From assembly GCA_964618485.1 (NCBI GenBank), contig CAZUBB010000001.1:1-54395 (forward strand): 54,395 bases of DNA, written 5' to 3'. Shown here one piece after another: positions 1,971 to 30,904 of the stretch. The notes beneath the pieces were generated by a model. The model saw only the letters and a list, made by a program, of their open reading frames with translations, had not been told where the DNA came from and ran no database searches. This DNA comes from an uncultured Pirellulales bacterium. Lineage in GTDB: Bacteria; Planctomycetota; Planctomycetia; Pirellulales; JALHLM01. The stretch's first letter is position 1; every line of letters begins with the position of its first letter. A program made the position numbers and the translations under genes.

Positions 1971-2894
1971 ATGGTGAGTTCAGGATGCACGAAGGAGCGA
2001 CGTGCCAGTCGGCGCGGCACTCGCGAGGCCTTCGAACGATTGAGCGCCGAGCGAATCGAGTACATTCCGAACGAGGCGTTCGATCGCGGCGACGCTGCGG
2101 AGATCGTACTGGCGCGGGAATTGACGCCGCTCCGAATGACCATCGCGGCGACCGCGACGACGCCGCGAAGAGTGAGCCGGATTCGCCGCCTGGCGGATTT
2201 CGAACTACTGCCGCGCGACGAGGAGGCGGAGACGTTCCGCCGGATGAACTACTGGAAGCACCAGGCCGTGACGCTGCGGGATCAGATGAAGCGCACGTCG
2301 CCCGATGCCGCTTCGGTGCGGGACATGGAAACGATGTTGCGGCGGGCGCGCGAATTGCGCGACCGCATCGTGCAGGCGAATCTGCGGCTGGTGATTTCGG
2401 TAGTGAAGAAGTTCGTCGACGCAAACAACACGCTGGACGATCTGTTGAGTGAAGGGACAATGTCGCTGTTGCGGGCCGTGGAGAAGTTCGATTGCGCGCG
2501 AGGGTTTCGCTTCAGCACATATGCGACGTACGCGATCCGGAGGAACCTTTACCGCTTCGTGGTGGCGCGACGGCAGGAGCGGTCGCGATTCGAGCGGCGG
2601 GCGGAGGAGTTCGCAGCAGATCTTCCGGACGAGGCCGAAGGACGCATCACCGAAGGGCGGTGGAATGAATTGCATCGCCGGTTGACCACGATTCTGCGGC
2701 GGCTCGATCCGCGGGAGCAGATGGTCATCCGGGCGCGGTTCGGCTTGGACGACCTGGCGGAGTCCGAGACGCTGCAGAGCCTGGCGGATCGGATGGGGGT
2801 TTGCAAGGAACGCGTGCGGCAACTCGAGAAGCGGGCGATGCTGAAGTTGCGGAAGATGGCGGGGGAGGCGGCGCTGGAGGATCCGGGGGAGTAG
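1971..2894 (+). CDS. RNA polymerase sigma factor, sigma-70 family
   Basis: 307-aa ORF. Region 2 is NLRLVISVVKKF...LLSEGTMSLLRAVEKFDCARGFRFSTYATYAIRRNL. The region 4 HTH is ETLQSLADRMGVCKERVRQLEKRAMLKLR. The start codon is uncertain; an internal Met at 2137 is possible. Confidence 0.85.
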   Translation: MVSSGCTKERRASRRGTREAFERLSAERIEYIPNEAFDRGDAAEIVLARELTPLRMTIAATATTPRRVSRIRRLADFELLPRDEEAETFRRMNYWKHQAVTLRDQMKRTSPDAASVRDMETMLRRARELRDRIVQANLRLVISVVKKFVDANNTLDDLLSEGTMSLLRAVEKFDCARGFRFSTYATYAIRRNLYRFVVARRQERSRFERRAEEFAADLPDEAEGRITEGRWNELHRRLTTILRRLDPREQMVIRARFGLDDLAESETLQSLADRMGVCKERVRQLEKRAMLKLRKMAGEAALEDPGE

Positions 2895-3007
2895 CCCGCT
2901 AAACTCGCAATGTACGCGAAAACGTGGGCGATTCGGCGTTGGCCCCGAGTTGTTGCGTCGGAACGGGGTGGGATAATCGTTTTTAATGGAAAAGTTGCGA
3001 CGGTTGC

Positions 3008-3037
3008 TTGACCCATCTTGTGACTCGTAATTAGTAT
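3008..3037 (+). promoter_or_regulatory. Candidate sigma-70-type promoter for the giant gene (TTGACC-18-TAGTAT)
   Basis: TTGACC at 3008-3013, an 18-nt spacer, then TAGTAT at 3032-3037. It would give a GC-rich leader of about 350 nt before the ATG at 3395. This is a pattern match only. Confidence 0.3.
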
Positions 3038-3394
3038 GGCGCTGCCGGGCGGGGCATAGGCAGTCGATAGGATCCGGCAGGGGCCAGCGGGCGTGGTTTT
3101 CCACGCGGGGTCGTTTTGCGCGGTTCCATTGAAAGCCGCGTCCCGCCGTGTTGACCAGGATGGTCGCTGACAGCGGTCGCGTCAGCGAAGGTAGGCCCTG
3201 CGCTCTGACCTGCGGGCTTGCTTCGAGGCGACTTCCGCGCGCCGCCGTCGTGATGAGCGCGTGATGCTTGCGCTCCGGTGTGGTTTCTGGTCCCACGGTG
3301 ACTTTGCGCCGACGACTTTCCCGGTAGCTGCTCGCCGCGCGATCGGCGGCACCCTCGCTCCGCTGCTGGGAAGCCTCCTCCCCTGAAAGACATC

Positions 3395-6300
3395 ATGATT
3401 AAATCCATTGCGCGCAGGCGGTTCGAACGGAAACAACGCAAGCAGCGGTCGTTGAGTCAGGAACGTTTGGAAGCTCGGCAATTGTTGTTCGGCACGCCGC
3501 TGGGGCAGTTTGTCGACGCCGCTTATCAGGATGTGCTGCTGCGACCGGCCGAGGCGGGGGGATTGGAGTATTGGACCGATCGCCTTGGGGCGAACAGCAT
3601 CACGCGCGGCGCCGTGGCGAACTCGATTCTCATTTCGGGCGAGCATGCGCAGGCGACGGTCAGCGAATTGTACAACGACGTGCTGGGGCGGCCGGCCGAT
3701 CCGGCGGGGCTGAGTTATTGGGCCGGCGCGATTCAGACGGGGACGAGCGAGCTGGATGTCGAAGCCGGGTTCCTCGGCTCAGCGGAGTATTTTCAGAAGG
3801 CCGGCGGAACGAACGAGACGTTTATCGCGGCCGCATATCGGGACATTCTGGGGCGCGTGGCGGGGCCGAGCGAAACTTCGTTTTGGCTGGGGCAATTGAA
3901 CGTGATTTCGCGCGAGCAGGTGGCGCGGAATGTGATCTACAGTCCGGAGCATTTGAGCCAGGAAGTAAATGCGTGGTACCAGACGTACTTGCATCGCTCG
4001 CCGGACAGTGGCGGATTGGCGTACTGGACCGGGTTGCTCGGTGCGGGGACGAACCCGAATTCGATTCAGACGGGGTTCATTGCCAGCCCTGAGTATTACG
4101 AGCGCGAGACGGCGCCGGCGATTCGCGTGCCGGGCGCGGCGGGGAGCACGATCGAGACCAAGATTCACTGGGGCGGCCGCACTGATCTGCACAGCGAGGT
4201 GGGGCTGTTCGTCGTCGAGAACGACGCGGGCATCGTGAACGGGTTGGCGCCGAGCCAACCGGATTATACACAGACGATCCTGGCGAGCGCCACACGGCAG
4301 GTGATTTTTTCGAGCGATCAGGCGCCAACGAATACGAGCGTCGATCCGACCACGTTGCCCAACAGTACGACGTTAAATCTTCCGGCCGGCGCATTGATGG
4401 GGATTTACCTCGTGCAGGATGGGTCGGCGGCGGACGCCTTGCCGCCGACGCCGCGCGCGCAGCGCCCTCCCGTGTATGTGAGTTTCCCCAGCGGCAATGG
4501 GGACTCATTCGATCACTACCGTTACGGCAACTACGTCATCGTGGGGATCGAGGACTTGACCGGCGGCGGCGACAAGGATTTTGACGACGCCGTGCTGCGG
4601 TTTGAATTTCCGAAAGACACGACGACGCCTCCGGTGAATCAACCGCCGGCGATCGAGCCGATCGCGAATAAGTCGATTCCGGAACAGTTGGCGATGCAGT
4701 TGCAGGTCGCGGCGACCGATCCGGACGGGCCCGCGAGTGCGATTCGGTATTCGGTCGATGCAGCGAGCGCCAACCTGGGGATGGCGATCGATGCGGTGAG
4801 CGGGTTGCTGACGTGGACGCCGAACGAGGCGCAGGGGCCCGGGACATACGCGGTGACCGTGAAGGCGACCGACGGCGGGAGTCCGGCGGCGAGCAGCGAG
4901 CGGACGTTTTCGATCAACGTGACTGAGGTGAATCGCCCGCCGGTGCTGGTGGATATTGCTTCGCGGACGGTGAGCTCCGGGACGAACGTGGCGTTCACGG
5001 CGTCGGCGACGGATCCTGATCTGCCGGCGAATACGCTGCTGTACACGCTGATCAACGGCCCGGCGGGGGCGACGATTAACTCGGCGACGGGGGCGTTTCA
5101 ATGGACGCCGACTGAAGCGCAGAACGGAGAGACCTACACCATGACGGTGCGCGTCTCGGACCAAGGGAACCCTGCAGCGACGGACGAAACGACGTTTGGG
5201 ATTACGGTGGAGGACTGCTCGTTCGCCAGCGATCCGGAGGTGTGGACGAGTTTCGAGGACGGCGGGAGCGCGAGCGGCAAGGGGACGACGACGGTCGAGG
5301 AGATGCTGGGGACGATCGTGGAGGGGGATTCGTTCGTTGTCGGGATGGAGCGGACGATTGCGATCCCGAGCGTGGCGTCGCAGTTGCGGTTCAGTGTTGT
5401 CAGTTCGGTCTTTGACACGAGCGCGACGGGAGGGATTCGCGACGCGTTCGAAGCGGCGCTCGTGGACGACCAAGGGCGGCCCGTGGTGCTGCCGTTTGCG
5501 GCGGGGCGGGATGCGTTTTTCAATCTGACGGAGGGAATTCCCGCGGCGATGGGGCCGGGGGTGACGTTTGACGGGAGCACGGCGATCGTCGACTTGTCGG
5601 GCGTGACGGTCACGAGCGCGCGGTTGGTGTTCCGACTGGTGAACAATGATGAGGATAGGGCATCGACGGTTGCGCTGACCTGCGTGCAGGTGGAGGCGAC
5701 CGCGACGCCGCTGCGGGCTGCACCGTTGACGGCGCCGGCGACAGGGAGCGGGAATGGCGGCTCGCAAAGTGGATCCCGTGGAAGCAGCGCGGAAACGCAG
5801 GTGGGGCCCGCGCTCCCGCCCGGGGTGTTGCCAAGAAGTGCGCCGACGAATGGCTCCACGAATGGAGGGGCGAGCGCGGCAACGCCGGCGCCCACCGCGG
5901 TGACAGCGCAGAATGATTTGCTGCCGGTGAGCGCGTTTTCGATCGACAACCGCGGGACCGATTTCTGGGTGGGGTTTGCGGACAATTTGCTTGAAGGAGG
6001 CAACCAGGCCACGAAGACGTTGTTCATCACCGGCGACATCGCCACGACGGGGACGGTGAGCGTGCCGGGGTTGGGGTTCTCGGAAGACTTTGCCGTGAAT
6101 CCCGGGGAGGTGACGGCGATCGTGCTTCCGACGTTGGTGGAGGTGGAGTCGCTGTTCGACGTGCAGGATCTGGGCGTGCACGTCGTGGCGGACGAGGAGG
6201 TGACGGTCTACGGCTTGAACCGCGCGCAGTCGACGACCGACGCGTATCTGGCGCTGCCGACCGAGTCGCTGGGGACCGAGTACATCAACCTCACGTACCG

Positions 6301-9300
6301 GAACGACGGATATTTTCTGGCGTTCATCGCGGGGACGCAGTTATTGCTGGTCGGAGCGCACGACGATACGCACGTGACGATCGCGCCGGGGCAGTATTCG
6401 ATTCCGACGGCGAACAGCAGCGTCAACTGGGTGGGGCCGGCGAACAACACGATCTTCAACATCGGCAACGGCACGGACAGCAACTTGTTCGTCGTCGACA
6501 CGGCTGGCAACTACAAGCTGACCGTGACGCCGCCCACGCTGGGGTACGCCGGGACGTACCAGTTCCGGATTCTGGATCTGGCGACGAACTCGACGGCGCT
6601 GGCGATCGGTGCGACCGCGAGCGGCAGTTTGCCGACGGGTCAGGAGACTGTCGCTTATCGCTTTGCTGGCGCGGCAGGGCAGCGGGTGTTGATCGATGGG
6701 CAGAATCCGGCGTACGTTCCCAATCTTGACTATCGATTGCTTTCGCCGTCAGGCGTTTTGCTCACGCAAACGGGCCTGGAGAGTAACTCGGAGATCCTGA
6801 CGCTCGCAGAGTCTGGCGACTACTACGTGCTGGTTTCGGGGGCGGTCAACATGCCCGCGACTTTTCAGTTCCGCGTGCACGATGTGGACGACGCAACGCC
6901 GATGGCTCTGGGAAGCGTGATTTCGGGAACGATGCCGGCAAACGCGCGGCGGACCGATCTGTTTGAGTTCAACGGGACGGTCGGACAACAGGTCGCCTTT
7001 GATGGGCAATCGCTGGGGCGCGGGACCGACGTCGTGGTGTACGCGCCCGGCGGCGCGATGGTGGCCAACTTTGTCTCGGCGGATGATCGCTATCCTGTCA
7101 CGCTGCCCACGAGCGGTACGTATACGATCACGGTCGACGGCCGGATTCCGGGGGAAGACTATCGCTTTCGCGTGGTCGACTTGAGCGGCGCGACGCCGGT
7201 TGCGTTTGACACGGTGGTGAACGCGGCGAGCGTGAATGATCGCGAGTTGGGGGTCTTTGCGTTCAACGGCGTGGCGGGCGCGGCGATTCAGTTTGATGCG
7301 CTCGGCGCGCTGGGGCAGGACTTTCAGGTGTTCGGGCCGGCGAACACGCAGCTCTTCACGGGGCGGACGAATGTGGACAGCAACGTCTGGACGTTGCCGG
7401 TGACGGGGACGTACGTGATGTACGTGCAGGGGAACGCGACGGGACCGACTGCGTTTCCATTCCGGCTGCTCGACCTGGCGAACGCAACGGAGTACACGCT
7501 TGGCGCGACGGCAACGGGGAACCTGGGGGCGTTTGAGTCGCGGGCGTATCGTTTCGACCTGGCCGCCGGTATGCCGTTGTACTACGACGGGCTCGACGGC
7601 GACTTTGACAATGTGCGCGCGCGGGTGACTTCGCCCGCGGGCGAGTTGATCGGCAGTTTCTTCAATGCCGACAGCGACAGCGGCATCGTTTACTCGACGA
7701 CCGGCGGCGATGGTTATTTGTTTGTGAGCAACGACCAGGCCGTGGCGGCGAACTATGGGCTCGTGCTGAGCGATCTTTCGGCGGCGCCGGTTTTGCCCCT
7801 GAACACGGACATCACAGCGAACTTGCCGACGGGGCGCGAGACGGCGATTTATCGCGTGGACGCTGCGGTAGGTGATCGGCTGATTTACGACGGGCGGGTT
7901 GGCTCGGGGAGCATTCCGGTGCGGTTGATCGGGCCGAACGGGCAGGCGATCTACCAAGCGAATTCGAATGGCGACAGCCCGGTGACGACGATTTTGGATG
8001 AGGGGAGCCACTACCTGTTGGTGCTGGGCGGCGTGAATGGCGCGACGAGCGTGCAGTTCCGGATGCACGACATCGACGCCGCGCCGGCGCTGCCGCTGGG
8101 CGTTGATACGCCGGTGTCGTTTACTCCGGGAAACGGCGCGGCGGCGTATACGTTCAACGGCACGGCCGGGCAGCGGTTGTCGCTCGATAACTTATCGGTG
8201 GCGTCGCCGGGGTCGGGTTCGTCGTCGCTCGTTGCCCCGAACGGCACGACGGTGGTGACGCGGAATATTGAAGTCGATTTCACCGCGGACATCACTCAGA
8301 CGGGGCAGTACGCGCTGGTGTTTTCGGGGAACGGTTCGCAGGCTTCGGTGCAAGCGACGTTCCGCGCGACATTGACCACGCCCGGCGTGGTCGCGCCGAG
8401 CGGTTTTGGTACGACCCAGACGCTGTCGATCCTCGCGGGTCAGTCGGCGACGTATCAATTCACTTCGCCGGCGGGACGGGTGGCGTACCTCGATAGCCTC
8501 AACACGGCGAATCAGAATCTGCGCGTCGAGCTGCGCGATCCGAGCGGCGTGACGCTTGTTTCGACGAATGACTTCACAGATCAGGGACCGATCACGTTAC
8601 CGTCGGCGGGGACGTATAGCGTGGTGCTGACGGGGAGCTCGCCTTCGCAAACGGGGAACTACAAGTTCCGGGTGCTGGACTTGAATAGCGCGCCGGCGCT
8701 GACGTTCGACACTTTGAACGAGGGGACGACGGGGCCGTTCGAGGCCGCGGCGTACCAGTTCACTTCGGCGGTCGGGGACGAGTACGTCTATAACGGAGTC
8801 GACACCGACTTTGACAATGTGCTGGCATTGGTCGTGCTGCAGAGCGGCGTGCGAGCAGCACAGTTGAATGCCGATGGCGAGTCGCGGATCGGGCCGATCA
8901 ACGAGGCCGGGACGAGCTTTGTCGTCCTGCAGAACAACCAAAATGCTTCGCCGGACTACCGGTTCCGGCTGCTGGAGACCGGGCACGCGCCAACGCTCAC
9001 GCTAGGGGCGGAGACGACAGGGACGTTTCCTGTGGGGACGGAGACGATCCAGTACCAGTTCCAGGGGACTGCGGGGGAACGCGTGCTGTACGACGGGTTG
9101 GAAGGCGACGTCGATAACGTTTCCGCGACGCTGCTGGGACCGGGAAACTCGATCCTGTTCTCGCTGAACGCCGATTTCCAGACGGCGCCGACGGTGCTCA
9201 CGGCGACGGGGACCTACACGCTGGTATTGCAAGCGAACACGACCGCGGGAGCGGATTATCGGTTCCGGCTGTTGAACTTGAATGCGCCGACCGCGATCGA

Positions 9301-12300
9301 CGTCGGCGACACCGTGACCGGAAACGTGGGGGCCAATGGGCGCGAGGTGAGCTATTTCTCGTTCGAGGGGACGACCGGTCAGCAGATTTTCTACGACGCC
9401 CTCGACGGCGATTTTGACGGGACGTTCGCCTCGATTCGCGATCCGTTCAACAACGAACTCCGCGGCGCGAATGGCGACTTGGACTCGGGCGTGTTGTCGC
9501 TGACCGTGGATGGGACCTACCAGGTCATCATGTACGGCAGCACGCCGAACGCCGATTTTGCGTTCGTATTGCGCGACCTGGCGGACGCCGCGCCGTTGGC
9601 GGTCAATGCGGAAGTGACGGGGCAGACTTCGCCGGGGCGCGACACCGTTATGTACACGTTCGATGCCGTGGCGGGGCAGACGCTGTACTTCAACGGGCTG
9701 GACAACGACAACGACGCGACGCAGGTGTTCATTCAGAACGCGAAGTTCCAGACGGTGTTGCAGCGAAACAGTTCGGCGGAGGATGGGCTGTTCACGGCGA
9801 ACGCCACGGGACGCTATTACGTGTTCCTGGTCGGGCGGACCGACGCGGCGGAGGACTATCGGTTTGCGATCCGCGATGTTTCCGGCGCGACGACGATCGA
9901 TTACGGCGACGAAGTGGCGGGGACGCTGGCGCTGGGGACGAACCATGTCGTGTATCGCTTCGACGGCGCGGCGGGGCAGCGGATTTACTTCGATGGGCTC
10001 GACACCGACTCTGATGCGGTGAACGCGCGGATTCTCAGCCCGACTGGAGTGACGTATCGCCACTTGAACGCGGACGACAACTCAGGGGTGTTTTCGCTGG
10101 GAGAGACCGGCGCGCATTATGTGATCGTCGAAGGGAACGCGGCGGCGGGGGCGGATTATCGCTTTCAACTGTTGGACGTCGACGCCGCGCCGGTGCTGAC
10201 GTACGGCGTCGACATCAGCGCGACGCTCAATCCGGGGCGCGAGGTGCAGGTGTATCGCGTGCCGGGCGTGCCGGGGAACGCGGTGTTGTTCGACAGCCTG
10301 GGAGGGACCGGAGGGAACGCGAGCTGGATTCTGTTCGATCCCGCCAATCGGCAGGTGGTGGGCACGGATCAGACCGTGGACTTTACGTCGACGCTCCTTT
10401 ATCACGGCGACTACGTGCTGGTCGTGTCGGGCAATGCACTGGCGCCGGTGAATTATTCGTTCCGGGCGACGAGCACGACGCTGCCGAGTGCGCCTTTGAC
10501 GGGCTTTGGCGTCAATCAGACGGCGGAGCTGGGGATCAATGAATCGGCGACGTTCAATTTCTCCGCGCCGATCGGGGCGCTGTTGTATCTCGACGTGTTG
10601 CAGAGCACGTTCGAGGTGCCGACGCATACGATCACGTTGAATGCCGGCCAGACGTACCTGGTGCGCGACGCGCTGGGGTCGAACGACTTGACCGGCACCG
10701 TGATTACGGCCGACAAGCCGGTGGCGGCGTATGGTTCGCACTTGTGCGGGTTTGTGCCGGACTTCACGGGGTTCTGCGATCACCTCGTCGAGCAGTTGCC
10801 GCCGACCGATGCCTGGGGGCGGGAGTTCGTGACGGTGCCGCTGGCGACGCGGCTGAACGGCGATACGTTCCGGTTCTTGGCGCAGGACGACGACACCGAA
10901 GTGCGGGTGAACGGCGCGCTCGTGGCGACGCTCGATCGCGGCGAGTTTCACGAGCGCGTACTGACCGTGGCGAGCGAAATTTCGGCGACGCGTCCAATTC
11001 TGGTGGCGCAGTATTCGAACGGTTCGACGTTCGACAACGTGACCAGCGATCCGTTCATGGTGTACCTGCCGCCGTACGAGCAGTTCCTCAGCAACTACAC
11101 GGTGACGACGCCGGCGACTGGGTTTCCGATCAATTATGTGAACGTGGTGGCGTCGGCGGCGGACGTGGGCTTGATTGAGTTGGATGGTATGCCGATCGCG
11201 GCGAACTTGTTTTCGGCGATCGGCGCGAGCGGCTTCTTCGGCGCGAAGGTGGCGGTGGAACTCGGCTCGCACACGCTGGCGGGACCGTCGCCGTTCGGGT
11301 TGACGGTGTACGGTTACTCGAATTTTGACTCGTACGGCTACGTCGGCGGGCAGTCGCTGGCGCCGGTGGCGGCCGCGGCTTCGCTGGACGTGACCGTGCA
11401 GCAATCGGTCGTGCCAATCGGCTCAGAGGCGGTCGTACGGGCGACGGTGCGCGACGATCAGGGAGCGCCGCTCGCCGGCGTGCGCGTCGACTTCGCCGTG
11501 GCGGGGGCGAATCCGCAGACGGCGTTCGCGTTCACCGATGACGACGGCGTGGCGACGTTGCGCTACGTGGGCACGGTCGATGGGTTGGACACGATCGACG
11601 CCACGGTGAGCAACCTGGTGGACACGGCGACGATCACGTGGGGCGCGGCGATCGGCGGGCCGTCGATTTCGATTCTCACGCCGGAGGAGGGCGCGGAGAT
11701 CGCCGCGGGAACTACGGTCGCTGTGGCGGGGTTGGCGGAGGCGGATCGGCCGTTCGCGTCGGTGATTCTGGTGACGGTGAACGGGCAGCCGGTCGAGGCG
11801 CTCGACGCCGCGGGGAATTTCTTCGTGCGGCTGGCGGTGCTGCCGGGGGACAACGTTTACGAATTCGAAGTGACCGACTCGCGCGATCAGACGGCACGGA
11901 CGACGCTGGTGCTGAAGGGAGAGCAACGCGCGGCCGGGGACGTGGCGTTTGACTTGTTGAGCAATGTTTCGGCGAGCTTTGCGCCGCAATACGCGCGGAC
12001 GTCGCTTAAGGAGGACGAGGATACGTTGTTTGCGGACATCTCGATCCGCAACGACGGGCAGTATCCGGCCGATGCGCCGCTCTTTGTGGCGATCACGAAT
12101 TTGAGCGATCCGACGGTGCGGGTGCTGGACGCCGACGGCTACACGCCGGACGGTGCGCCGTATTACGACTTCACGGGACTTGTCACGGGCGGGACGCTCG
12201 CGCCGCGGAGCGCGACGGGCTTTCTGGCGGCGGCGTTTTCCGCGCCGGGGCGGACGCAGTTCACGTATGACTTGAAGTTCTTCGGGAAGCTGAACACCGC

Positions 12301-15300
12301 GCCGGCGTTTGCGACGACGCCGGTGGTGGATGGGCTGGCGGGACGGAGCTACCGCTACGAGGCGTTCGCTACGGATGACGACGGCGATACTGTGGCGTAC
12401 TCATTGCCGGTCGCGCCGGAAGGGATGCTGATTGACAGCGCGACGGGCGCGATCGATTGGTTGCCGGAAGCGGACGATCGGGGCGTTCATGAAGTAATCG
12501 TGCTGGCCGACGACGGGCGCGGCGGGACGACGGAGCAGCGCTTCCTGGTGATGGTGGTGACGCCGCCGCCGAACCGGCCGCCGGTGTTCAGCACGTTGCC
12601 GGTGGTGTCGGCGGAGTCCGAGGCGGCGTATCGCTACGACGCCGATGCAAGCGACGCCGACGGGGATGCGCTCGTGTTTACGCTGACGACCGCGCCGGTC
12701 GGGATGACGATCGACGACGCGACCGGGGTGATTACCTGGACGCCTGGTGCGGGGCAATTGGGAGATTTCAACGTCGCGGTGCTGGTCGACGACGGCGCCG
12801 GGGGCGTGGCGACGCAGCAATACGTGGTGTGCGTGCAGCCGAGTTCGTCGAATTACGCGCCGGTGATTACGAGCGCGGCGGAGTTGTTCGCGACGGGGGA
12901 TTATGAGTACCAGGTGCAGGCGCTCGATGCGAATGGAGATGCGCTGGCTTACTCGCTCGAAGTGGCGCCGGCGGGAATGACCATCAATCCGGCGACGGGG
13001 TTGATCACGTGGGCGACGACGCCAACGGATGAAAGGACGCATGACGTTGCGGTGCGCGTGGTGGATGGGCGGGGCGGGAGCGATACGCAGACGTTCACAT
13101 TGACGGTCAACGACAACGTCGCGCCGACCTTTACCACCGCGCCGGTGACGGCGGCGACCGTGGGCGTGCTTTATGTGTACGACGTCAACGCGGTGGACGC
13201 CGACGCGATCAATTACTCGCTCGCACAGGGGCCGTCGGGGATGACGATCGACGCCGCCAACGGCGTGATTCAGTGGACGCCGGGGGCGACGCACTTCGCG
13301 CAGGAGCGCGTCGTGGTCGAAGCGAACGACGGCCGTGGCGGGAAGACGCAGCAGGCCTTTGTGATTCAATTGGCGAATGGGCTGAGCCTGGCGGGGAACG
13401 TTGCGCCGAAGTTCATCACCACTGCGCCGACGAGCGGCGCGGCGCGGCAGGTATATCGTTACAATGCCGTAGCCATCGATCCGAATGGCGACCCGGTGAC
13501 CTACGATCTGGCGCTGGCGCCGGCCGGGATGGCGATCGATCCGGCGACGGGGGCAATCGCTTGGACGCCGCGCGCGGAGCAAGTAGGGGTGCAGCAGTTC
13601 GTCGTTCGCGCTAAAGACAACCAAGGGGGCGTGACGCTGCAATCGGTGAGCGTCACGATCGGCGCGGCGAACCACGCGCCGGTGTTCTCGAGTACTGCTG
13701 GGACGCAGGCCGTGGTGGGCGCGGCGTTTGGGTATATGGTCGCGGCGCAGGACGCCGACGGCGACACGCTGAGCTTTACGCTGATCGACGGCCCGGATGA
13801 CGCGACGCTGGGCGAGGTGTTCGGCGTGCCGAATCGCGGGATTCTGGTGTGGTTTCCCGACGCCGCGGGGCCGGAGTCGTTCACCATCGAGGTGCGCGAC
13901 GGCCAGGGGGGGACGGCGACGCAGCAATTTGTCGTCACCGCCGTGGCGACCGCGCCAAATCATGAACCGGAGATTACGACTGAGCCGCGGGCATCGATTC
14001 CGCTCGGGCGGACATGGTTTTACTTGCCTGAGGCGAGTGATGAGGACCATGACCGGTTGTTGTACGCGCTCGACGAAGGCCCGGCGGCGATGTCGATCGA
14101 TCCGGTGACGGGGCAACTGATTTGGACGCCGAACGCGGTAGGCGTGACGCAGGTGACGCTGCGGGTGAGCGACGGCCGCGGCGGCGAGATGTCGCAGGCG
14201 TTCGAGATCGAGGTCACCGCGGAAGAGGCGAACGGCGCGCCGACGATCGTTTCCGTGCCGTTGACGTCGGCGGTGGTGACCGATTCCGAGTTCCGGTATC
14301 ACGCGCGGGCGGTCGATCCGGATCATGATCCAGTGGCTTGGAGTTTGGTCGATGGGCCCGAGGGCGTGTCGATCGATCCGCTGAGCGGCGAGGTGCGTTG
14401 GACGCCACGGGCCGATCAGTTGGGCGCGCAGACGATCGTGATTCAGGTCGTCGATCCGTTCCTGGCGAGCGCGACGCAGACGATTCATGTCGTGGCGACG
14501 TGCTGCAATCAGCCGCCGGCGATTTTGTCGCGGCCAGTGACGACGGCCAACGCCGATGCGCGGTACATCTACGGCGTGCGGGCGATCGACCCTGAGAACG
14601 CGACACTGACGTATTCGTTGGTCGACGCGCCGAGCGGGATGACGATCGACGCGGCGACGGGAGTGATTCGCTGGACGCCGACGGTGGCGCAGTTGGGCGT
14701 CGCGGACGTGCGGGTGCGCGTGACTGACGCGAGCGGCGCGAGCGCCGAGCAGGCGTATGCGATCGACGTGACGCAGGTGATTCCGGACCTGGCGCCGATT
14801 TTCCGATCGCGGGCCGTATTCCGCGCGACGGTCGGCGCGCCGTACGAATACGAGGCCGAGGCGGTCGATCCCGAGGGGACGTTGGTGACGTATTCGCTGT
14901 TGAGCGCACCGGCGGGGATGACCATCGATCCGAACAGCGGTCTGATCGCGTGGATGCCTGCGGCGGCGCAGGCCGGGCCGCATGTGGTGATCGTGGCGGC
15001 GGACGACGCGGCGGGAAATCGCGGGCAGCAGCGCTATGCTCTGCTGGCGCGGGTGAATCAAGCGCCGGAGATTGTTTCGGAGGCGCCGACAACGATTTCG
15101 GCGGGCGCGGTTTACTTGTACGACGTGCAGGTGGACGATCCCGAAAACGATCCGATTACCTTCACGCTGCTCGAAGCGCCGGAAGGGATGACGATTGACG
15201 CCTTGGGGCGGATCGCGTGGACGACGGCGCTCGCGAACCTCGGCACGCACGCGGTGACGGTGCAGGCGGCGGATGCGCATGGGTTGGTCGACACTCAAAC

Positions 15301-18300
15301 GTTCACGCTCACCGTCGCGCCGGATACGATTGCGCCGCGGGTGAGCGTGACGTTGAGCTCGCCGCGTGTGGCGATTGGTTCGCCGGTGGTGATTACCGTG
15401 CAGGTGATGGACGACGTGGGAATCGCGCATCTCGCGCTGACGATCAACGGCCAGCCGGTGACGCTGAGCGAGCAGGGGACGGCGATTTTCACGCCGGATG
15501 CGCCGGGACAGTTGAACGTGGTGGCGACGGCGACCGATGCGGCCGGAAACGTGGGCCAAGGGAATGCTTTGCTGCGGGCGTTCGATCCGGCCGACACGGA
15601 CGGTCCGCTCGTGGAGATCACGAGCCCGAGCGACGGTACGGTCGTGACGAGGATCACCGAAGTTTTCGGCACCGTGAGCGATGCGAACTTGCTGTCGTAT
15701 CGCGTGGAGTATGCCCGGGCCGATCTGGTGGATGTGAACGATCCGACAGCGGACGACCCGGATTGGAAGTTGATTGTGGAGTCGAGCACGTCGGTGGTGA
15801 ATGATACGCTGGGCGCGTTTGACCCGACGATGCTGTTGAATGACAGCTATGTGGTGCGGGTGATCGCGGAGGATTCGAGCGGGAATCTCACGGCGCGGAC
15901 CGTGGCATTGAGCATCGACGGCGATTTGAAGCTCGGGGAGTTCGCGATTTCGTTTGTCGATCTTGCCGTGCCGGTGGCGGGGATTCCGATTACCGTGCGC
16001 CGCACGTATGACACGCGGCAGGCGGGCGAGAGCGGTGATTTTGGCTTTGGCTGGACGCTCGATTTGCAAAACGGACAGGTGCGGGAGTCGGTGCCGGTGA
16101 GCGACCTTGAGCTGCAGGGGCTGTACTTCGGCGCGAATCCGTTTGAGTTCGGCACGCGCGTGTTTATCACCGGGCCGGACGGTCGCCGGCGCGGATTTAC
16201 GTTTGAGCCGACGCCGCAGTTCAGCCTGTTCGGCGGCGGTTATTGGTTGCCGGCCTTCCGGCCGGACCCGGGCGTGTATGACACGCTGGAAGTGGATCCC
16301 ACGCCGTTGCAACTGCGCGCGGATGGGACATTCGGTCAGCACTTGGTCGGGTTTCCGTACAACCCGTCGGTCTATCGGCTCACATCGCGTGAAGGGACCG
16401 TGTATCAGTACGATCAGTTTTTCGGTTTGCAACAGGTGACCGATCGGAACGGGAAGACGTTGACGTACAGCGGGGATCGGATCGTCAGCTCGACCGGCAA
16501 GGAGGTGCGGATCGAACGGGATTCGTTCGGGCGGATCGCGCAGATTGTCGATCCCGCTGGGCGGGCGATCCGTTATGCGTACGATGCGCAGGGGAATCTG
16601 GTCGAGGTGACCGACCGCACCGGCGAGAGCACGAAGTACGAGTACCACGCCACACAGGCGCACATTCTGGTGAAGGAGATCGACCACGCGGGGCGCGCGA
16701 CGCTGACGGCGGAATACGACGCCGCAGGACGGCTCATCGGACTGGCGGGGCCCCATGGGTCTGCGTCGCAATCGATCAGCGATCCCGATGCGCAGACGGA
16801 GTTGCTCACTGACCCTGAAGGGCATGCGACGCTGGTGACGTACGATGACCGCGGGAACGTGATTGCTTCGCGCGACCCGATCGGCGGCGTGTGGAACAGC
16901 AACTACGACGCGGCGGGGAACCTGCTTTCGGCGAGCGACCCGAGCGGGAATACGATTACTCGGGAGTTCGATGATCGCGGCAATGTGGTGCGGATGACCG
17001 ATCCGTTCGGCGGCGTGTATCTGACGGAATACAACGCCTTTAACCAGATTACGAGGCTGACCGATCCGCTGGGGCGCGTGGCGACGTACGAGTACGACGC
17101 GCGGGGGAACCTGGTCGCGATGATCAACCCGGCGGGGGAGCGGAGCGAGTTGGAAGTCGACGCCGAGGGGCGGACGATCTCGCAGACCGACGTGATGGGG
17201 AATGTGACGCGGCTGGTGTACGAGGAGGGGACGCAGCCGACGGAGCAGATTTTCGCCGATGGCACGCGGCGGCGCGTGGAGTACAACTCGAGCGGGCAGG
17301 TGACGCGCGAGATCGACGAGAACGGGCACGCCACGGACTACACGTACGACGCGGAAGGGCGGCTGGTGAAGATCGTGGACGCGATCGGCCGCGTGACGAC
17401 GATGACGTACGACGGGGACGAACTCGCGACGTCGACCGATGCGCTGGGCGTGGTGACGCGTTACGAGCGCGACGAGGCGAAGCGGATTGTGCGCCTGGTG
17501 CGAAACGCCGCGCCGACGACGACGCTCGTGAGCATCAACGCCGTGGAGGATGCGCCGGAGAGCGTCACGCAGTTCGAGTACAACGACAACAACCAGGTGG
17601 TGGCCGAGATCAGCCCGATCGGCGGAAGAACGGAGTACACGTACGACGATCGCGCGTTGCTGGCGACGATTACCGACGCGCTCGGCTACGTGACGCGGCT
17701 GGAGTACGATCCGGCGGGGAATCTGAGCAAGATCACGGACGGTCGCGGCAACGCGGTGATCTATCGCTACGACGCAATGAACCGGTTGATCGAGCAGGAG
17801 GACGCGTTCGGGTTCGTGCAGAAGTACACGTACGACGCGCTCGGGAATCAGACGAGCTACACCGATCAACTGGGGCGGATGTCGACCTTCGAGTACGACG
17901 CGTTCAATCGCCTGGTGAAGGCGATCGATCCGCTGGGAGCGGTGCAGCGGAAGGCGTTCGACGCGCACGGCAATGCGGTGGAGTACGTCAACCCGAACGG
18001 CGAGTCGTCGCACGCGGAGTACGATGCGCGGCATCGCATGACGAAGTTGACCGACGCATTGGGACAGGCGATCACCTACACGTACGACGCGGCCGGTAAT
18101 CGTGAGACGATCGCCGATAAGCTGGGCGAGACGTGGACCTACACATACGACGCGGCGAATCGCCTGATTTCGACGCTCGATCCGCTGGGGGGCGTCGAAG
18201 ACTACGAGTACGATGCGCTCGATCGGATGGTGACGCAGACCGACGTGCTCGGGCGGACGCAGCGTTGGACGTACAACGAATTGGGCGACACGACGTCCTA

Positions 18301-26308: not shown

Positions 26309-29300
26309 CTAGCGTGGAATTGAACGCGCGAACGCTTGGCGCGTTCTTGGTCTTGCCGAGAACGGCAGGTCTGCAGATGTTACATCAGCGAAAAGCACGT
26401 CCGCGGCGTCGCCAGCATCTGTCCGTTCGCGCCAGGCGATGGTGGTGGCGAAGGCTTGGTCGCGGGCGGTGGATTCGGGCTGTAGAGGTTCGGTTTTCAA
26501 CGGCGCCGTGAGTGATGGGCCGGTCCACGACGTGAGCGGTCCGCGGCGCGTGTTGGCGAAACCGACGCGGCCGAAGTTGTTGCGGACATCGTTCAGGTCG
26601 TTCAGATCGACGACGCCGTCGCCATTGGCGTCCCCAAGGCCTTCGCCGCCGAAGTTGTTGCGGACATTGTTGAGGTCTTCGAGATCGACTTTGTTGTCGT
26701 TGTTCGTATCGCCGGGAAGCGGGCCTTGCACGTCGAAGTGGACCGTGGCGATCGCCGATTGCAGCGTGCCGACCAATTCTAAATCGAAGCTCAGGTCAGA
26801 ACTGTTGCCGGACGATTGATGGATTTCGACGGCGATCACGTTGTCACCGGCGACGAGATCGGCCGGGTCGACGGTGAATTCGATGAATGATTCTTCATCG
26901 GCGTCTTGGATAGCGCTGTTGGCCAGATCATCGAAATCCGCGCCGGCATTCAAGTTGGTGTAGCCGACGAGTTGCCCGTTGAGGAACACGCCGGCGCCGT
27001 CGTCGCGAAGGATGCGCAGCTTGAGCGTGGCGTACTTATCTGGATCATCGATCTGAAAGTGATGGCGGAAGTACGTGGTGATGTATTTCTGCGAACCGTT
27101 CGGGCCGAAATTGACCGTGGCGGTTTCATCGCTGTCGCCATAGCCGAGCTGTGCCGCGCCGGTGGCCCAGGCGCCGTCTGTGAACTCGCGCAGCCGCCAG
27201 GCCGTACCCTGGTTGGAACCGTTATCCAGATAGCGCCACGATGAGCCGAGCGGAACGACGTTCGTCGGCACGCCTTGCACGGCGCGGTACGTGAAGCTGT
27301 CGACGCCGACGAAATCGGCGGCCGGGAAGTAACGGAAGGAACCGTCGGGGTTCAATTCGACCGTGCCGTTGGTTGGCGCGGCCACGAGCGCCGCGCGAAA
27401 TGGATCGAGTTGCGCATCGAAGTCGTTGCCGAGCACGCCCAGGCCGCCGACCACGCGTTCCGTGTTCTTGGTGGCGGTGTAGGCGTCGTCGACCGGCGTG
27501 GGGCGCGTGTCGTCGAGGCGGACGAACTCGATCCAGTTGATGTTGAACAGACTTCCGCCAGCGCCGTGAAATACGAAGAATAACTCGTGGCTGCCGGCGA
27601 CGTGCGTCATCGGCGCGGTGACGTTCTTGTAGATCTGCCAATCGCCCGTGGGAGTGATGTTGGCGGTGCTGATTACCGGTCCGTCTGGAGAATCGATCCG
27701 GGCTTCAATGGTCCCGCCGGCGCCGGCCGAGGCGACGCGATAGCGGATGGCGTCGACGTTCGGCGCGTGAATCGGCGTGAAGGACAGGTAGTCGCCGTCT
27801 TCGATGAAGCCGACGTTTTCGCCTCCGCCGGCGCGGTCTGCGGTGGCTTCGACCTGGATGCCGTTTTGGGAATCGTAGTGCTCCGCCTCGATGCGGCGCG
27901 GTTGCAGCACCGCGGCCTGGCGCGCAGTGAACGGTCCGACGCCCGGCGCGCCGCGATCGGTGTAGCGGGCTTCGACGATGAGGAACAAGTCATCGCCGTC
28001 GCCGCCGTGGTCCGCGGGGGCCTGAATGGTGCCGATGCAGCCGCTGTATTCGTCCAGCGGATGCGAGTGCGTATCGTGCCCCTGGAACAACTGCACAACG
28101 ACGTCGCCGCAGGCAATGCCGCCGTCCTCGGTATTGCCGTCTTCGGCGTCGTAGACCTGCACGCGATAGGTGATGAGATCGCCCCAATCGTAGATCAAAC
28201 CGTCTTGCGGCGCGATCAACGTAATCACGGGCGCAGTGTTGCCAGCGGCGATGGGGACCGTGGCGAGCGCGGTGTGGCCATCGAGATCCGTGACGGTCAG
28301 CGTGGCCGTATAGTTGCCGGCCGTTGTGTAAGTGAACTCCGGGTTGGGTTGTGTGGAATCGACCACGCCGTCGGTGGTGAAGTCCCAAGCGAAGGTGACG
28401 GGGCCGCCGTCGCCGTCGCGCGAGCCCGAGCTCGAGAATTGCACGGTCAACGGCAGCGGGCCTGCTTGTTGGTCGGCGCTCGCGACCGCGATGGGGGGGC
28501 GATCATTGAGCAGGTATTCGATGCGGATCAATTGCGAGTCGGCGTTGTTGCCGCCGAAGCCGGTTCCCCATTCGATCATGTAGATGGCGCCGTCGGGACC
28601 GATCGTCATGTCCATGGGGCGGCGCAGGTCGAGGCTGGGGAGGAACGGATTAATCGCCAGGACGTTGCCAGCGTCATCGAGTTTGATTTCTTTGATCCAG
28701 TTGCGCGACCATTCGTAGATGAACACCGTGTCGTCGTAGTAGCCGGGCAACTTGTTGGGGGAAACGAGGTCGGCGTCGTAGTGGTAGACCGGTCCGCCCA
28801 TCGCCGTGCGCCCGCCGGAACCGAGCTGCGGGAATTGCGGCGAGGTATCGTACGGATACCAAATCCAGGCGGGCTGCGCGGCGGGAAGTTGTTGCGCGCC
28901 GGTGTTATTGGGCGAGTTGTTGATCGGCGCGGCGGGGTTGAACGACGGGCCCGAGGCGCCGGTGGCGAAGTCGTATTCGCGGTACGGCTGGTTATTGCCG
29001 ACGAAATGCGGCCAGCCGAAATTGCCAGCGGCGCGGGCCTGGTTGAACTCATCGTAGCCGCGCGGTCCGCGCGTGGCGTTGTCGCTGCCGGCGTCGGGGC
29101 CGACTTCGCCCCAGTAAAGCCAGCCGGTCTCGGAGTCGACGCTGATCCGGAAGGGATTGCGATTCCCCATGACGTAGATTTCGGGACGCCCGTTGGAACC
29201 GTCAGCGAGGAACAGATTCCCTTCCGGAATTGTGTAGCCTCCTTCGTCCGTGGGGCGAATGCGGCTGATCTTGCCGCGGAGGTCGTTGGGATTGGCCGAG

Positions 29301-30577
29301 CTTTTCTGCGCATCCCAGGCGGAACGGCCAGGGCGCTCGTCGATCGGCGCGAAGCCGTCGGACTCGAAGGGATTGGTGTTGTCGCCGGTGGAAATGTAGA
29401 GTGATCCATCGGGACCAAACGTAAGCGAGCCACCGGAATGGCAGCACTGTTGGCGCTGCGTAGGAATCTCCAGCAGGACGCGCTCGCTCGGCAGATTAAG
29501 TTGCGAACCTTCGAGCGTGAAGCGCGCGACCCGTTGCCGCGCTGCGCCTGATGCGGGGGAATAGAACAGGTAGATCCACTGGGTGGCGTCGAAGTTGGGA
29601 TCGAGCGCGATGCCAAGCAGGCCGTCTTCCTGGCCGGTGAACACGGAGAGCTGGCCGAGTGTGGTTGTGCCGCCGACCGTGGGATCGTAGACCTTGACTG
29701 CGCCGCCGCGCTCGACGAAGAAAACTCGCCCGTCGTTGGCGACGGCGAGTTCCATGGGGTTGTTGGTGTTGCTATCGAGGACGACTTTCTCGAAGTTGCT
29801 CTCGATCGTGGCGCCGCAATCGCCTTCGACGGCGCCGGCGGCCCATTCGATGCCGCCCAGGAGGTGTTGGCGATAGAGCGGTTCGCTGTAGCTCGACGCG
29901 GTGTGGCCCAGGCCGGTGTACCAGGAGCGGCCGCCGTCGTAGGCCTGGCACCAGGAGATGGGGTGATCGTAACCCATCGTGCCGCCGGCGTAGCTGGTTT
30001 CGTCGAGCGTCGCCAGGACATGCACGTTGCCGCGCGGATTGGTGGCGAAGTTGTACCACTCGTCAGTGCGAGCCCATTCGGTCGGGAGACCCGCCGTCGA
30101 GGGATGGGCCTTGTCGAGCACTTGCACCGTGGCGGCCGCGGTGCCAGGGGGATGACTCTGAAAGTAAGCGCCGACCAGTCCGCCGTACCAGGACCAACTG
30201 TATTCGGTGTCGGCCGCTGCATGCACGCCGATATAGCCGTGGCCGGCCTGAACGAAGCGCTCGAAGGCCGCTTGCTGCGCTGCGCTTAAGACGTCGCCGG
30301 TGGTATTGAGGAACACCACGGCTTCGAAATCGGCGAGGCCCGCATCGGTGAAGACAGCGGCGTCTTCGGTGGCCGTGACGTTGAACTCGTGCTCCACGGA
30401 CAGCGCTTGGATGGCGGCGATGCCTTCATCGATGGAATCGTGCCGGAAGCCGGCGGTCTTCGAGAAAACGAGGAGATCGAAGTCGCCATGCAGTAGGCGG
30501 CGATCTTCGAGGAGTTCCAACTGCAACGGCAGACGGGCGCGCAGCAAGCGCGACGCGCGGAGGTGGGAACGCGACAT
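26309..30577 (-). CDS. Multidomain exoprotein: ThuA-like + PQQ-dependent sugar dehydrogenase beta-propeller + PKD + CBM6/35-like + cadherin-like + jelly-roll + dockerin-type repeat pair
   Basis: 1,422 aa. The N-terminus is MSRSHLRASRLLRARLPLQLELLEDRRLLHG. Modules: ThuA-like (LLVFSKTAGFRHDSIDEGIAAI); GSDH-like (GLLGIALDPNF...CCHSGGSLTFGPDGSLYISTGD); PKD (LTVQFSSSGSRDGDGGPVTFAWDF...GNYTATLTVTD); CBM-like (RIEAEHYDSQNGIQVE...INWIEF); dockerin-type (DTNNDNKVDLEDLNNVRNNFG, DANGDGVVDLNDLNDVRNNFG). Confidence 0.9.
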   Translation of the reverse strand: MSRSHLRASRLLRARLPLQLELLEDRRLLHGDFDLLVFSKTAGFRHDSIDEGIAAIQALSVEHEFNVTATEDAAVFTDAGLADFEAVVFLNTTGDVLSAAQQAAFERFVQAGHGYIGVHAAADTEYSWSWYGGLVGAYFQSHPPGTAAATVQVLDKAHPSTAGLPTEWARTDEWYNFATNPRGNVHVLATLDETSYAGGTMGYDHPISWCQAYDGGRSWYTGLGHTASSYSEPLYRQHLLGGIEWAAGAVEGDCGATIESNFEKVVLDSNTNNPMELAVANDGRVFFVERGGAVKVYDPTVGGTTTLGQLSVFTGQEDGLLGIALDPNFDATQWIYLFYSPASGAARQRVARFTLEGSQLNLPSERVLLEIPTQRQQCCHSGGSLTFGPDGSLYISTGDNTNPFESDGFAPIDERPGRSAWDAQKSSANPNDLRGKISRIRPTDEGGYTIPEGNLFLADGSNGRPEIYVMGNRNPFRISVDSETGWLYWGEVGPDAGSDNATRGPRGYDEFNQARAAGNFGWPHFVGNNQPYREYDFATGASGPSFNPAAPINNSPNNTGAQQLPAAQPAWIWYPYDTSPQFPQLGSGGRTAMGGPVYHYDADLVSPNKLPGYYDDTVFIYEWSRNWIKEIKLDDAGNVLAINPFLPSLDLRRPMDMTIGPDGAIYMIEWGTGFGGNNADSQLIRIEYLLNDRPPIAVASADQQAGPLPLTVQFSSSGSRDGDGGPVTFAWDFTTDGVVDSTQPNPEFTYTTAGNYTATLTVTDLDGHTALATVPIAAGNTAPVITLIAPQDGLIYDWGDLITYRVQVYDAEDGNTEDGGIACGDVVVQLFQGHDTHSHPLDEYSGCIGTIQAPADHGGDGDDLFLIVEARYTDRGAPGVGPFTARQAAVLQPRRIEAEHYDSQNGIQVEATADRAGGGENVGFIEDGDYLSFTPIHAPNVDAIRYRVASAGAGGTIEARIDSPDGPVISTANITPTGDWQIYKNVTAPMTHVAGSHELFFVFHGAGGSLFNINWIEFVRLDDTRPTPVDDAYTATKNTERVVGGLGVLGNDFDAQLDPFRAALVAAPTNGTVELNPDGSFRYFPAADFVGVDSFTYRAVQGVPTNVVPLGSSWRYLDNGSNQGTAWRLREFTDGAWATGAAQLGYGDSDETATVNFGPNGSQKYITTYFRHHFQIDDPDKYATLKLRILRDDGAGVFLNGQLVGYTNLNAGADFDDLANSAIQDADEESFIEFTVDPADLVAGDNVIAVEIHQSSGNSSDLSFDLELVGTLQSAIATVHFDVQGPLPGDTNNDNKVDLEDLNNVRNNFGGEGLGDANGDGVVDLNDLNDVRNNFGRVGFANTRRGPLTSWTGPSLTAPLKTEPLQPESTARDQAFATTIAWRERTDAGDAADVLFADVTSADLPFSARPRTRQAFARSIPR

Positions 30578-30829
30578 GACCTGCTTCTCCTCTGGCCTCA
30601 GCGAGCGCCGCGAGAACTGAGGCTACTGCGATGTGGGCGATGCGATGACTTCGCAAAAGGGACGCGGGCGGCGACTCGATTGCTGAATATAAACGCCCGG
30701 AAAGTCGAGAAGAAAGCAAAAAGACTTGTTAGGATTTGATGTGGTCGATCGCCCGCCCGGCGAGGTGGAGCGACAGATGCGAACTACCGCATGGGGACGG
30801 GATGCAGCGAACTGGCGGAAAAACGGTCG

Positions 30830-30859
30830 TTGAGCGATGGATCGGGGCCCTCGTATAAT
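30830..30859 (+). promoter_or_regulatory. Candidate sigma-70-type promoter (TTGAGC-18-TATAAT) for the CotH-family gene
   Basis: TTGAGC at 30830-30835 and a perfect TATAAT at 30854-30859. A purine-rich GGGGGGAGAGG ends 4 nt before the ATG at 30905. Confidence 0.45.
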
Positions 30860-30904
30860 CGGGCGGCGCGGACAGGGACGAGGCATCCAGGGGGGAGAGG
30901 CTTG

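Follow-up and report, generated by a model that had tools for sequence, protein, structure and literature searches.

We analysed a stretch of 54,395 nucleotides (the window) that constitutes the whole of one contig (C1; CAZUBB010000001.1, positions 1 to 54,395) in the metagenome-assembled genome (MAG) GCA_964618485.1 of an uncultured Pirellulales bacterium. On its forward strand, at positions 3395-20830, lies a giant Rhs gene: one open reading frame (ORF) of 5,811 codons with an ATG start and no internal stop, whose product (P0001 in our comparisons) carries a long series of adhesin-type modules ahead of an Rhs cage and a C-terminal cargo. This frame, together with a list of the domains along it, had been put forward in an original prediction made from the letters alone; the ORF listing and translation confirmed the former, and scans of overlapping pieces against Pfam and NCBIfam recovered every element of the latter. 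Here we describe how the protein is built and how it has evolved, and we weigh our reading of it, as a toxin-type cage mounted on a surface stalk, against the alternatives.

A conserved planctomycete gene

Because the source MAG is fragmented (351 contigs) and about 70% complete, the single frame might be suspected to be a chimera put together from repeats during assembly, instead of a single gene. We regard this as hardly credible. The DNA repeats within the gene are short and only 60-83% identical, with long exact copies absent, so that assembly collapse is not favoured. The homologue search that the prediction had proposed returned collinear orthologues of like length from independent assemblies: P0002 (5,803 amino acids, aa) and P0010 (5,789 aa) each align to the giant protein in a single high-scoring segment pair, the former at 75% identity over 5,818 columns and the latter at 68%, while P0023, P0025 and P0049 align end to end over more than 5,300 columns at 41-42% identity. 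One of these collinear orthologues, P0023 (5,670 aa), is encoded on the closed chromosome of a cultured isolate, Singulisphaera sp. PoT (locus L006). The gene is also under purifying selection, the ratio of nonsynonymous to synonymous substitution rates (dN/dS) being 0.23 over 2,497 codons in a comparison with L071, the locus of a same-genus MAG labelled Pirellulales. Taken together, these alignments argue strongly for a real, conserved planctomycete gene and against a repeat artefact.

An identical protein of 5,811 aa is also recorded on a contig of 89,564 nucleotides, as against the 54,395 nucleotides of the window contig, which suggests a second, longer assembly of the locus. An antisense open frame of 2,585 aa (12401-20158, reverse strand) lies inside the giant gene and presumably results from the high G+C content of the coding strand. 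Promoter and terminator scans at both ends of the gene gave nothing useful.

N-terminus and export motif

The protein opens with a basic segment (3395-3496, forward strand; MIKSIARRRFERKQRKQRSLSQERLEARQLLFG) that lacks a hydrophobic h-region. Its first 60 aa are basic and never hydrophobic, as the prediction had it, with a maximum Kyte-Doolittle value of 0.76 for any 19-mer. The segment matches the.E.LE.R.LL part of the motif RRLxxExLExRxLLA, which was reportedly described by Studholme et al. (2004) and stands in Pfam as PF07595 ('Planc_extracel'). This is an export motif specific to planctomycetes (PMC8567305). In the proteome of Tuwongella immobilis it is borne by 52 proteins, including 8 of the 10 longest (4,016-10,566 aa), and 8 of the 20 motif-bearing proteins that were detected were exclusive to the fraction soluble in sodium dodecyl sulfate (PMC8567305); Rhs or YD proteins have no occurrence in that proteome paper.

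Many large frames of the source genome start with an Arg-rich stretch followed by LExLExRxLL, and at least 44 bear the motif, both large neighbours of the giant gene included. The motif of the giant protein is a weak variant, QERLEARQLLFG. When scored with a position-specific scoring matrix (PSSM) built from 23 clear motif-bearing N-termini of the same genome, the giant N-terminus reaches 14.4 bits, a value attained by 45 of the 3.73 million sequence windows in all open frames (the giant protein ranking 45th); 42 of these 45 fall within the first 110 aa of an open frame, and in this sense the motif is statistically specific. We take the N-terminus, from its sequence, as a diverged member of the RRLxxExLExRxLLA group.

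The two large neighbours are a ThuA-GSDH-PKD-CBM6 protein of 1,422 aa (26309-30577, reverse strand) and an LTD-CotH protein of 1,651 aa (30791-35746, forward strand). Each has a clear N-terminal LExLExRxLL, and the PF07595 hidden Markov model (HMM) gives them E ~0.003, below its cut-off.

Stalk modules

The export-type segment is followed by a cassette of four DUF4214 stretches (3494-4110, forward strand, aa ~34-237; Pfam E 7e-38). This cassette of about 200 aa recurs at 12 other loci of the source genome (G000; contigs C196, C99, C14, C178, C294, C124, C71, C46, C52, C67, C166 and C23), mostly at the extreme C-terminus of an open frame; the export motif stands at the N-terminus of three of these frames as well. 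Relatives of the giant protein have dockerin or FG-GAP/VCBS modules behind their N-terminal motif, in place of DUF4214. Because the cassette sits at the termini of a dozen other proteins, several of them with an export motif, we infer that it is a terminal docking module with an anchoring role.

Next come DUF4114 (aa 329-404) and two cadherin/He_PIG Ig-like modules (aa 434-605), which Pfam places together at 4379-5212 on the forward strand, and then an IgGFc_binding-like domain that is split in two. Its N-terminal piece (profile positions 1-61) lies at 6239-6445, aa ~949-1017, and scores 27.4 bits against a Pfam cut-off of 25.6. Its C-terminal piece (profile positions 63-297) lies at 10622-11314, aa 2410-2640, with a Pfam E-value of 1e-61, and is the best-conserved part of the stalk, at 84-88% identity to P0002 and P0010. 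The space between the two, again on the forward strand, is taken by a repeat array (6401-10654, aa ~1003-2420) in which an iterated HMM finds 13 full and 2 partial repeats of about 100 aa each. The prediction had spoken of some 14 PPC-like repeats. At the sequence level the Pfam PPC matches to the array are weak and sub-threshold (E 2e-4 to 0.04); at the level of the modelled fold the description holds. An AlphaFold (AF2) model of one repeat unit, made from 45 aligned repeats, has a mean predicted local distance difference test score (pLDDT) of 96.5, and Foldseek matches it to the ColG collagen-binding domain (1nqj; template-modelling scores, TM, of 0.70/0.79), to the PPC domain 5sv5 (0.71/0.74) and also to PliG. 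The predicted fold of the repeats is thus a PPC/collagen-binding beta-sandwich.

The comparison of loci L003-L082 places this array in context. In about 55 loci of other phyla the two IgGFc_binding pieces are only 12-20 aa apart; such a contiguous domain is found in Actinomycetota, Bacteroidota, Acidobacteriota, Chloroflexota, Pseudomonadota and Verrucomicrobiota, and also in one Gemmataceae MAG. In the Pirellulales and Isosphaerales loci the pieces are ~810-830, ~1,390 or ~1,606 aa apart, corresponding to about 8, 14 or 16 repeats, the whole arrangement spanning 6239-11314 in the window. Since the domain is contiguous in the other phyla, the array is, as judged from these spacings, an insertion nested in a loop of an IgGFc_binding-like domain. 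Among nine orthologues that share 41-77% identity the repeat copy number stays at 13-15, so the composition of the stalk is kept constant.

The distal part of the stalk (11423-15541, forward strand, aa ~2677-4050) is made up, by Pfam, of a Big_1/TTR-like module (Big_1, with a weak TTR match, at aa 2677-2748), a Glucodextran_B-like module, an unnamed beta region, 11 He_PIG/Big_9 modules (aa ~2990-4010) and Big_13. The motif GMTIDxxTGxIxWTP, with 2+10 regular-expression matches and one variant, gives 2+11 He_PIG modules for the stalk as a whole.

The Rhs cage and its core

The cage (15605-19873, forward strand) consists of a Glucodextran_B-like module, a DUF6531 plug (aa ~4178-4225), YD/RHS repeats and an Rhs-associated core, as identified by Pfam and NCBIfam. 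The prediction was to stand only if HMMs supported the repeats and the core, and they do: PF05593 matches the repeats at E 1e-123 in at least 25 stretches, TIGR01643 matches them at 5e-102, there are partial TEN_YD-shell matches, and the Rhs_assc_core model TIGR03696 gives 79.9 bits where 32.5 would suffice. The equivalog model for the E. coli-type RHS element core, NF041261, reaches 289 bits of the required 2000. The core reads YYDPQAGRFISEDPLG...NSPQNASDPLG, with R5453, D5466 and D5490 set in YYRARYYDPQAGRFISEDPLG-x20-DPLG, which ends at aa 5493. Both the DPLG-x20-DPLG pair and the catalytic R/D/D residues are complete, predicting an autoprotease, and the spacing of the three residues (-13, +24) is that of R2103/D2116/D2140 in the bacterial teneurin-like protein BiTLP (PMC13018210).

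In sequence searches of the PDB, the best match of the cage is the Rhs protein 7q97 (E 1.6e-65), which belongs to a type VI secretion system (T6SS); 8cp6 and 8qja are further T6SS Rhs matches. The bacterial teneurin-like structure 9ifo follows at 6e-44 and animal teneurins at ~1e-17, and Tc cocoons give weak matches in the core region (E ~1e-11 to 1e-14). This order does not bear out the original placement of the protein as closer to teneurin-like proteins. Nor did an NHL or FN-plug domain give a match at E <= 1 within aa 4050-4500, and the plug is separated from the first RHS repeat by only ~150 aa.

Exchange of the cage and cargo

Identity profiles along the closest orthologues revealed a mosaic history. 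In the stalk (aa 600-4300), P0001, P0002 and P0010 are 77% identical in every pair. In the cage (aa 4400-5400), P0001 and P0002 are still 73% identical, whereas P0010 shares only 42-43% identity with either of them and is no closer than any other lineage. The shift occurs in a breakpoint zone just after the plug (aa ~4350-4450; 16445-16744, forward strand). Because the identity of P0010 drops from 77% to 42-43% between stalk and cage, the profiles indicate that the whole cage with its cargo (~1,450 aa) was replaced as one cassette in one lineage. In other close pairs the stalk and cage identities lie closer together (79/81, 53/57 and 51/61).

The cargo beyond DPLG5493 comprises 318 aa and has two parts. 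The first, here called the 'pre-toxin' segment (19874-20375, forward strand, aa 5494-~5660), was delimited by alignment as a Gly-rich beta stretch and an amphipathic helix; this segment of ~170 aa is weakly similar to the C-terminal regions of P0010, P0021, P0023, P0025, P0036 and P0049. The second is an orphan tip of ~150 aa (20376-20830, forward strand) in which ..IxxHG.. and C-x-I-C-Y-x-G are conserved. It is common to P0002 only and absent from the other orthologues, and even with P0002 the identity in the last window of the profile is 36%, against 75% overall. When the cargo was searched exhaustively with HMMER among 1.84 billion representatives, a single weak match came back, located in the pre-toxin part. 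The PDB matches of the cargo to xanthine dehydrogenase (E ~0.005) lie in the Gly-rich stretch, and we regard them as fortuitous. From its sequence pattern alone (beta strand-HG ... hydrophobic-C-x-I-C-Y-x-G) the tip could be read as caspase-like, but we make no such claim.

Giant Rhs relatives

The rarity of such giants implied by the original prediction did not survive a wider search. Scored on the cage region, the search returned at least 1,105 significant proteins of 3,200-10,000 aa, many of which share the Pfam set DUF4114, He_PIG, Big_9, IgGFc_binding, Big_1 and RHS, and many of which start with an LExLExRxLL motif. Isolates are represented among them by Limnoglobus roseus, Singulisphaera, Stieleria and Pan216. 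The C-termini of these relatives include Endonuclease_NS_2, AHH, Tox-HNH-EHHH, Ntox28, GH-E, Tox-GHH, TNT and PT-HINT. Given these toxin domains, the class of giant Rhs proteins can be described as polymorphic toxins.

A probable stalk-mounted protein of polymorphic-toxin type

We consider it probable that the giant gene product is an exported, surface-docked and stalk-mounted Rhs protein of polymorphic-toxin type that works independently of T6SS, its cargo being cleaved off by the protein itself and delivered on contact. The self-contained, surface-displayed or contact-dependent effector of the original prediction is retained in this interpretation and gains from the stalked-cage architecture, the export motif and the orthologue genomes that lack TssC; the placement among teneurins is given up. 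The N-terminal motif, of the RRLxxExLExRxLLA type, would direct the protein to the cell surface, and the fourfold DUF4214 cassette would hold it at the surface of the producer. About 35 beta-sandwich modules (2+11 He_PIG, the IgGFc_binding-like domain with 14 nested PPC-fold repeats, Big_1 and others) would make up a stalk, constant in composition, that carries the C-terminal end outwards, by a rough estimate over more than 100 nm if extended, and that probably serves to bind a ligand on the target as well. The 1,320 aa at its far end would fold into a closed Rhs/YD cage plugged by DUF6531, in which the aspartyl autoprotease (R5453, D5466 and D5490) would cut after DPLG5493, leaving the 318-aa cargo inside the cage until its release on contact. 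Within the cargo, the Gly-rich pre-toxin half is likely to be the membrane-translocation part, and the orphan 150-aa tip with its conserved His and Cys is likely to be the effector.

Several observations weigh against this interpretation. Among the motif-bearing proteins the giant N-terminus has the lowest PSSM score, and the Pfam PF07595 HMM (20 positions) is silent on it. The cargo matches no toxin family in Pfam, NCBIfam or PDB sequence searches, and its AF2 model, from a 9-row alignment, has a pLDDT of 40 and is unusable. Most orthologues share one C-terminal type, in which the pre-toxin segment is followed by a Pro/Gly-rich linker and a Cys-rich tail of ~50-70 aa that matches no named family (P0008, P0010, P0017, P0019, P0021, P0023, P0025 and P0049 end in this way, several with an R-S/T-Y-L-like motif), which makes the cargo less polymorphic than that of classical Rhs systems. 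Downstream of the giant gene there is no immunity-type ORF, the next feature after a gap of 143 nucleotides being a gene for 786 aa, and no same-strand small ORF lies downstream in the two orthologue loci checked (G008 and Singulisphaera). A missing immunity gene is unusual for an antibacterial polymorphic toxin. Lastly, the orthologues keep company with T6SS genes. We traced them by the C-terminal piece of IgGFc_binding together with Big_1, and cage and core matches further downstream confirmed them. Within the order, 6 of 151 genomes have one, all six TssC-positive, and in a species collection 12 of the 15 planctomycete genomes with an orthologue have TssC, the background being 34%; both are raw counts without correction for phylogeny.

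As to the surroundings of the gene, the sigma factor, the MerR/B12 regulator and the 786-aa gene beside it are next to none of the fetched orthologues; with no neighbour syntenic at those loci, a conserved partner gene is not in evidence.

The missing immunity gene and the family-wide C-terminal type keep in play a role in recognition or adhesion, or else a non-self target. In the first of these cases the giant protein would be a non-toxic adhesion or recognition protein, a functional analogue of metazoan teneurins, whose cage is structural or signalling and which needs no immunity. Such a role would agree with the lack of a downstream immunity ORF in three loci, with a C-terminal architecture that most orthologues keep without any swapping of enzymatic toxins, with a cargo outside the toxin families, and with a stalk of binding-type folds whose repeat number is conserved. 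We nevertheless find it unlikely. The autoprotease R/D/D residues are intact in the giant core, whereas this motif is absent from mammalian teneurins (PMC13018210), and nucleases and the TNT NADase are found in giant Rhs relatives whose stalk modules are related. Furthermore, the tip diverges much faster than the rest of the protein and the cage-cargo unit recombines, both of which are typical of conflict systems.

Relation to type VI secretion and Tc toxins

Contrary to the expectation that T6SS would not be typical of Planctomycetota, the source genome itself encodes one. Contig C168 (1-10434) carries TssA, TssB, two TssC, TssE and TssF, and contig C141 (1-8000) holds a canonical VgrG-DUF2169-Rhs locus with the end of a VgrG gene, two DUF2169-like ORFs (one of them confirmed by Pfam) and a DUF6531-Rhs protein of 1,140 aa whose C-terminal region has no family assignment. 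Across the 151 genomes of the order, TssC is present in 51 and Rhs cores in 108. The absence of PAAR, VgrG and TcB signatures, on the other hand, was correctly foreseen: protein scans found no PAAR, VgrG, DUF2169 or TcB domain in the giant protein, and no T6SS or Tc family in the ten neighbouring ORFs scanned. Because these domains are missing here, while the Rhs protein on C141 of the same genome sits behind a VgrG fragment and DUF2169, we read the giant protein as independent of T6SS.

Two further features of C141 may be recorded. An unnamed ORF looks PAAR-like by eye and has no Pfam match, and a small ORF downstream of the DUF6531-Rhs protein is a candidate immunity gene.

TssC is absent from the orthologue-bearing Singulisphaera sp. 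PoT, with its closed chromosome, from two other planctomycete MAGs with an orthologue, and from 7 of 9 Acidobacteriota and other genomes that carry an IgGFc_binding-Rhs fusion. Across the genomes compared, the enrichment of TssC is confounded by relatedness and T6SS is not obligatory for the orthologues. It is very doubtful, in our view, that the giant protein is a T6SS-associated effector, loaded on or co-operating with the T6SS of its own genome. Such an effector would account for the TssC counts given above and would suit the presence of a T6SS in the source genome, the closeness of the cage in sequence to T6SS Rhs structures and the DUF6531 plug. Yet the counts ignore kinship (three of the six genomes belong to one genus, and many are Pirellula MAGs), the giant gene and the T6SS genes lie on different contigs, an Eag-type neighbour is lacking along with PAAR, VgrG and DUF2169, three planctomycete genomes have the orthologue and no TssC, and a stalk of 4,100 aa with an N-terminal export motif is without precedent as spike cargo. 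In another genome of the order (G071:C17:132871-145320), an Rhs core lies in a frame of 3,444 aa about 11 kb from TssC, and some large planctomycete Rhs proteins may be linked to T6SS.

A released toxin is a further alternative: exported by a type I or other system, the protein would act at a distance like a Tc BC cocoon, its stalk being a receptor-binding part only. The giant protein shows neither a membrane anchor nor a lipobox or sortase-type signal. DUF4214 is often found in RTX-type substrates of type I systems, and a cargo of 318 aa in a cage of 1,320 aa is nearer in size to the Tc cocoons than to T6SS Rhs proteins. These points favour release. We still judge it quite unlikely, as the protein has neither RTX repeats nor TcB domains, Pfam matches to SpvB and TcdB mid domains being absent; four genomes yielded no TcB-binding domain of TcA (PF18276), though this search is weak, no control genome having given a match. 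The recurrence of the DUF4214 cassette at the termini of many proteins of the genome, and of dockerin in the same slot of relatives, speaks for docking instead.

Discussion

The components of the giant protein and the general concept behind it are known; we found no description of the family itself, the nested repeat array, the exchange of whole cages or the lack of an immunity gene in the literature that we searched. It is tempting to see in them a hitherto undescribed class of contact devices, the stalked Rhs proteins of planctomycetes, with a phylum-specific export signal, DUF4214 docking, a stalk of fixed modules and a whole cage with cargo that can be exchanged, in which no immunity gene is needed because the cargo acts on non-self (other phyla, eukaryotic hosts or grazers) or in recognition. 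We put this forward as a tentative proposal that may well turn out otherwise.

Rhs cages have mostly been studied as cargo holders of T6SS or Tc toxins. Their display on adhesin stalks has entered the literature only since 2026, for teneurin-like proteins, with Planctomycetota not among the reported phyla. The giant gene offers a clean planctomycete case with an internal control, the canonical T6SS Rhs locus of the same genome, and a conserved collinear family to work with, one member of which belongs to a cultured strain whose genome is closed. The gene raises the questions of how a 600-kDa protein would be exported by an N-terminal motif, why the number of stalk modules is fixed, how a whole cage is swapped and what makes an immunity gene dispensable. 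Nothing is overturned by this case, and giant stalked Rhs proteins are numerous in databases; its interest, which is moderate, is that of an undescribed variant of the Rhs polymorphic toxins with probable surface display.

Comparison with known systems

With the giant surface proteins of the PF07595 type, the giant Rhs protein shares a basic N-terminus with an LExLExRxLL-type motif, a very large size and a multi-domain build. It differs from them in that its motif is a weak variant and in that it ends in an Rhs cage.

With the Rhs polymorphic toxins (RhsA of P. protegens, 7q97; Tse5, 8cp6; the Sec-exported WapA) it has in common the YD cage, the DUF6531 plug, the Rhs-associated core with PxxxxDPxG and two catalytic Asp residues, and a cargo past the predicted cleavage site. 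Rhs toxins of planctomycetes with export other than by T6SS have been listed before (Zhang et al. 2012, PMC3482391). In contrast to the known Rhs toxins, the giant protein has a stalk of ~4,100 aa ahead of the cage, a planctomycete N-terminal motif in place of PAAR/VgrG or a Sec signal, no adjacent immunity gene and a 318-aa cargo that matches no known family; in addition, it is the whole cage, and not the tip alone, that is exchanged between close relatives in its family.

The Tc BC cocoons (TcdB2-TccC3 and YenB-YenC2) resemble the giant protein, as we picture it, in their closed YD cocoon, their aspartyl autoprotease and their unfolded cargo of ~30 kDa. The giant protein differs in lacking SpvB and TcdB mid domains and in being a single chain with a stalk.

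The bacterial teneurin-like proteins (TLPs; BiTLP, 9ifo/9pt5; Raoelijaona et al. 2026, PMC13018210) have a superfold composed of an FN-plug, an NHL propeller and a YD shell, and they have been reported from six phyla, Planctomycetota not being one of these. They carry Sec signals for signal peptidase I or II (SPI/SPII), and almost all have an immunity gene directly downstream (PMC13018210). The giant protein has neither of these, nor an NHL propeller or FN-plug, its plug being DUF6531; and whereas the C-terminal domains of TLPs average ~15 kDa (PMC13018210), its cargo has ~30 kDa. The likeness lies in the order of parts, since TLPs, too, have N-terminal adhesion domains (BIG, TTR) followed by a YD shell around a C-terminal toxin that the protein itself cleaves off, and in the DPxG-x20-DPxG and conserved Arg, which are identically spaced in the giant protein. 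As far as these sequences can tell, the giant protein is like the teneurin-like proteins in working principle, with an adhesion stalk, a YD shell and an enclosed C-terminal domain, without being one of them.

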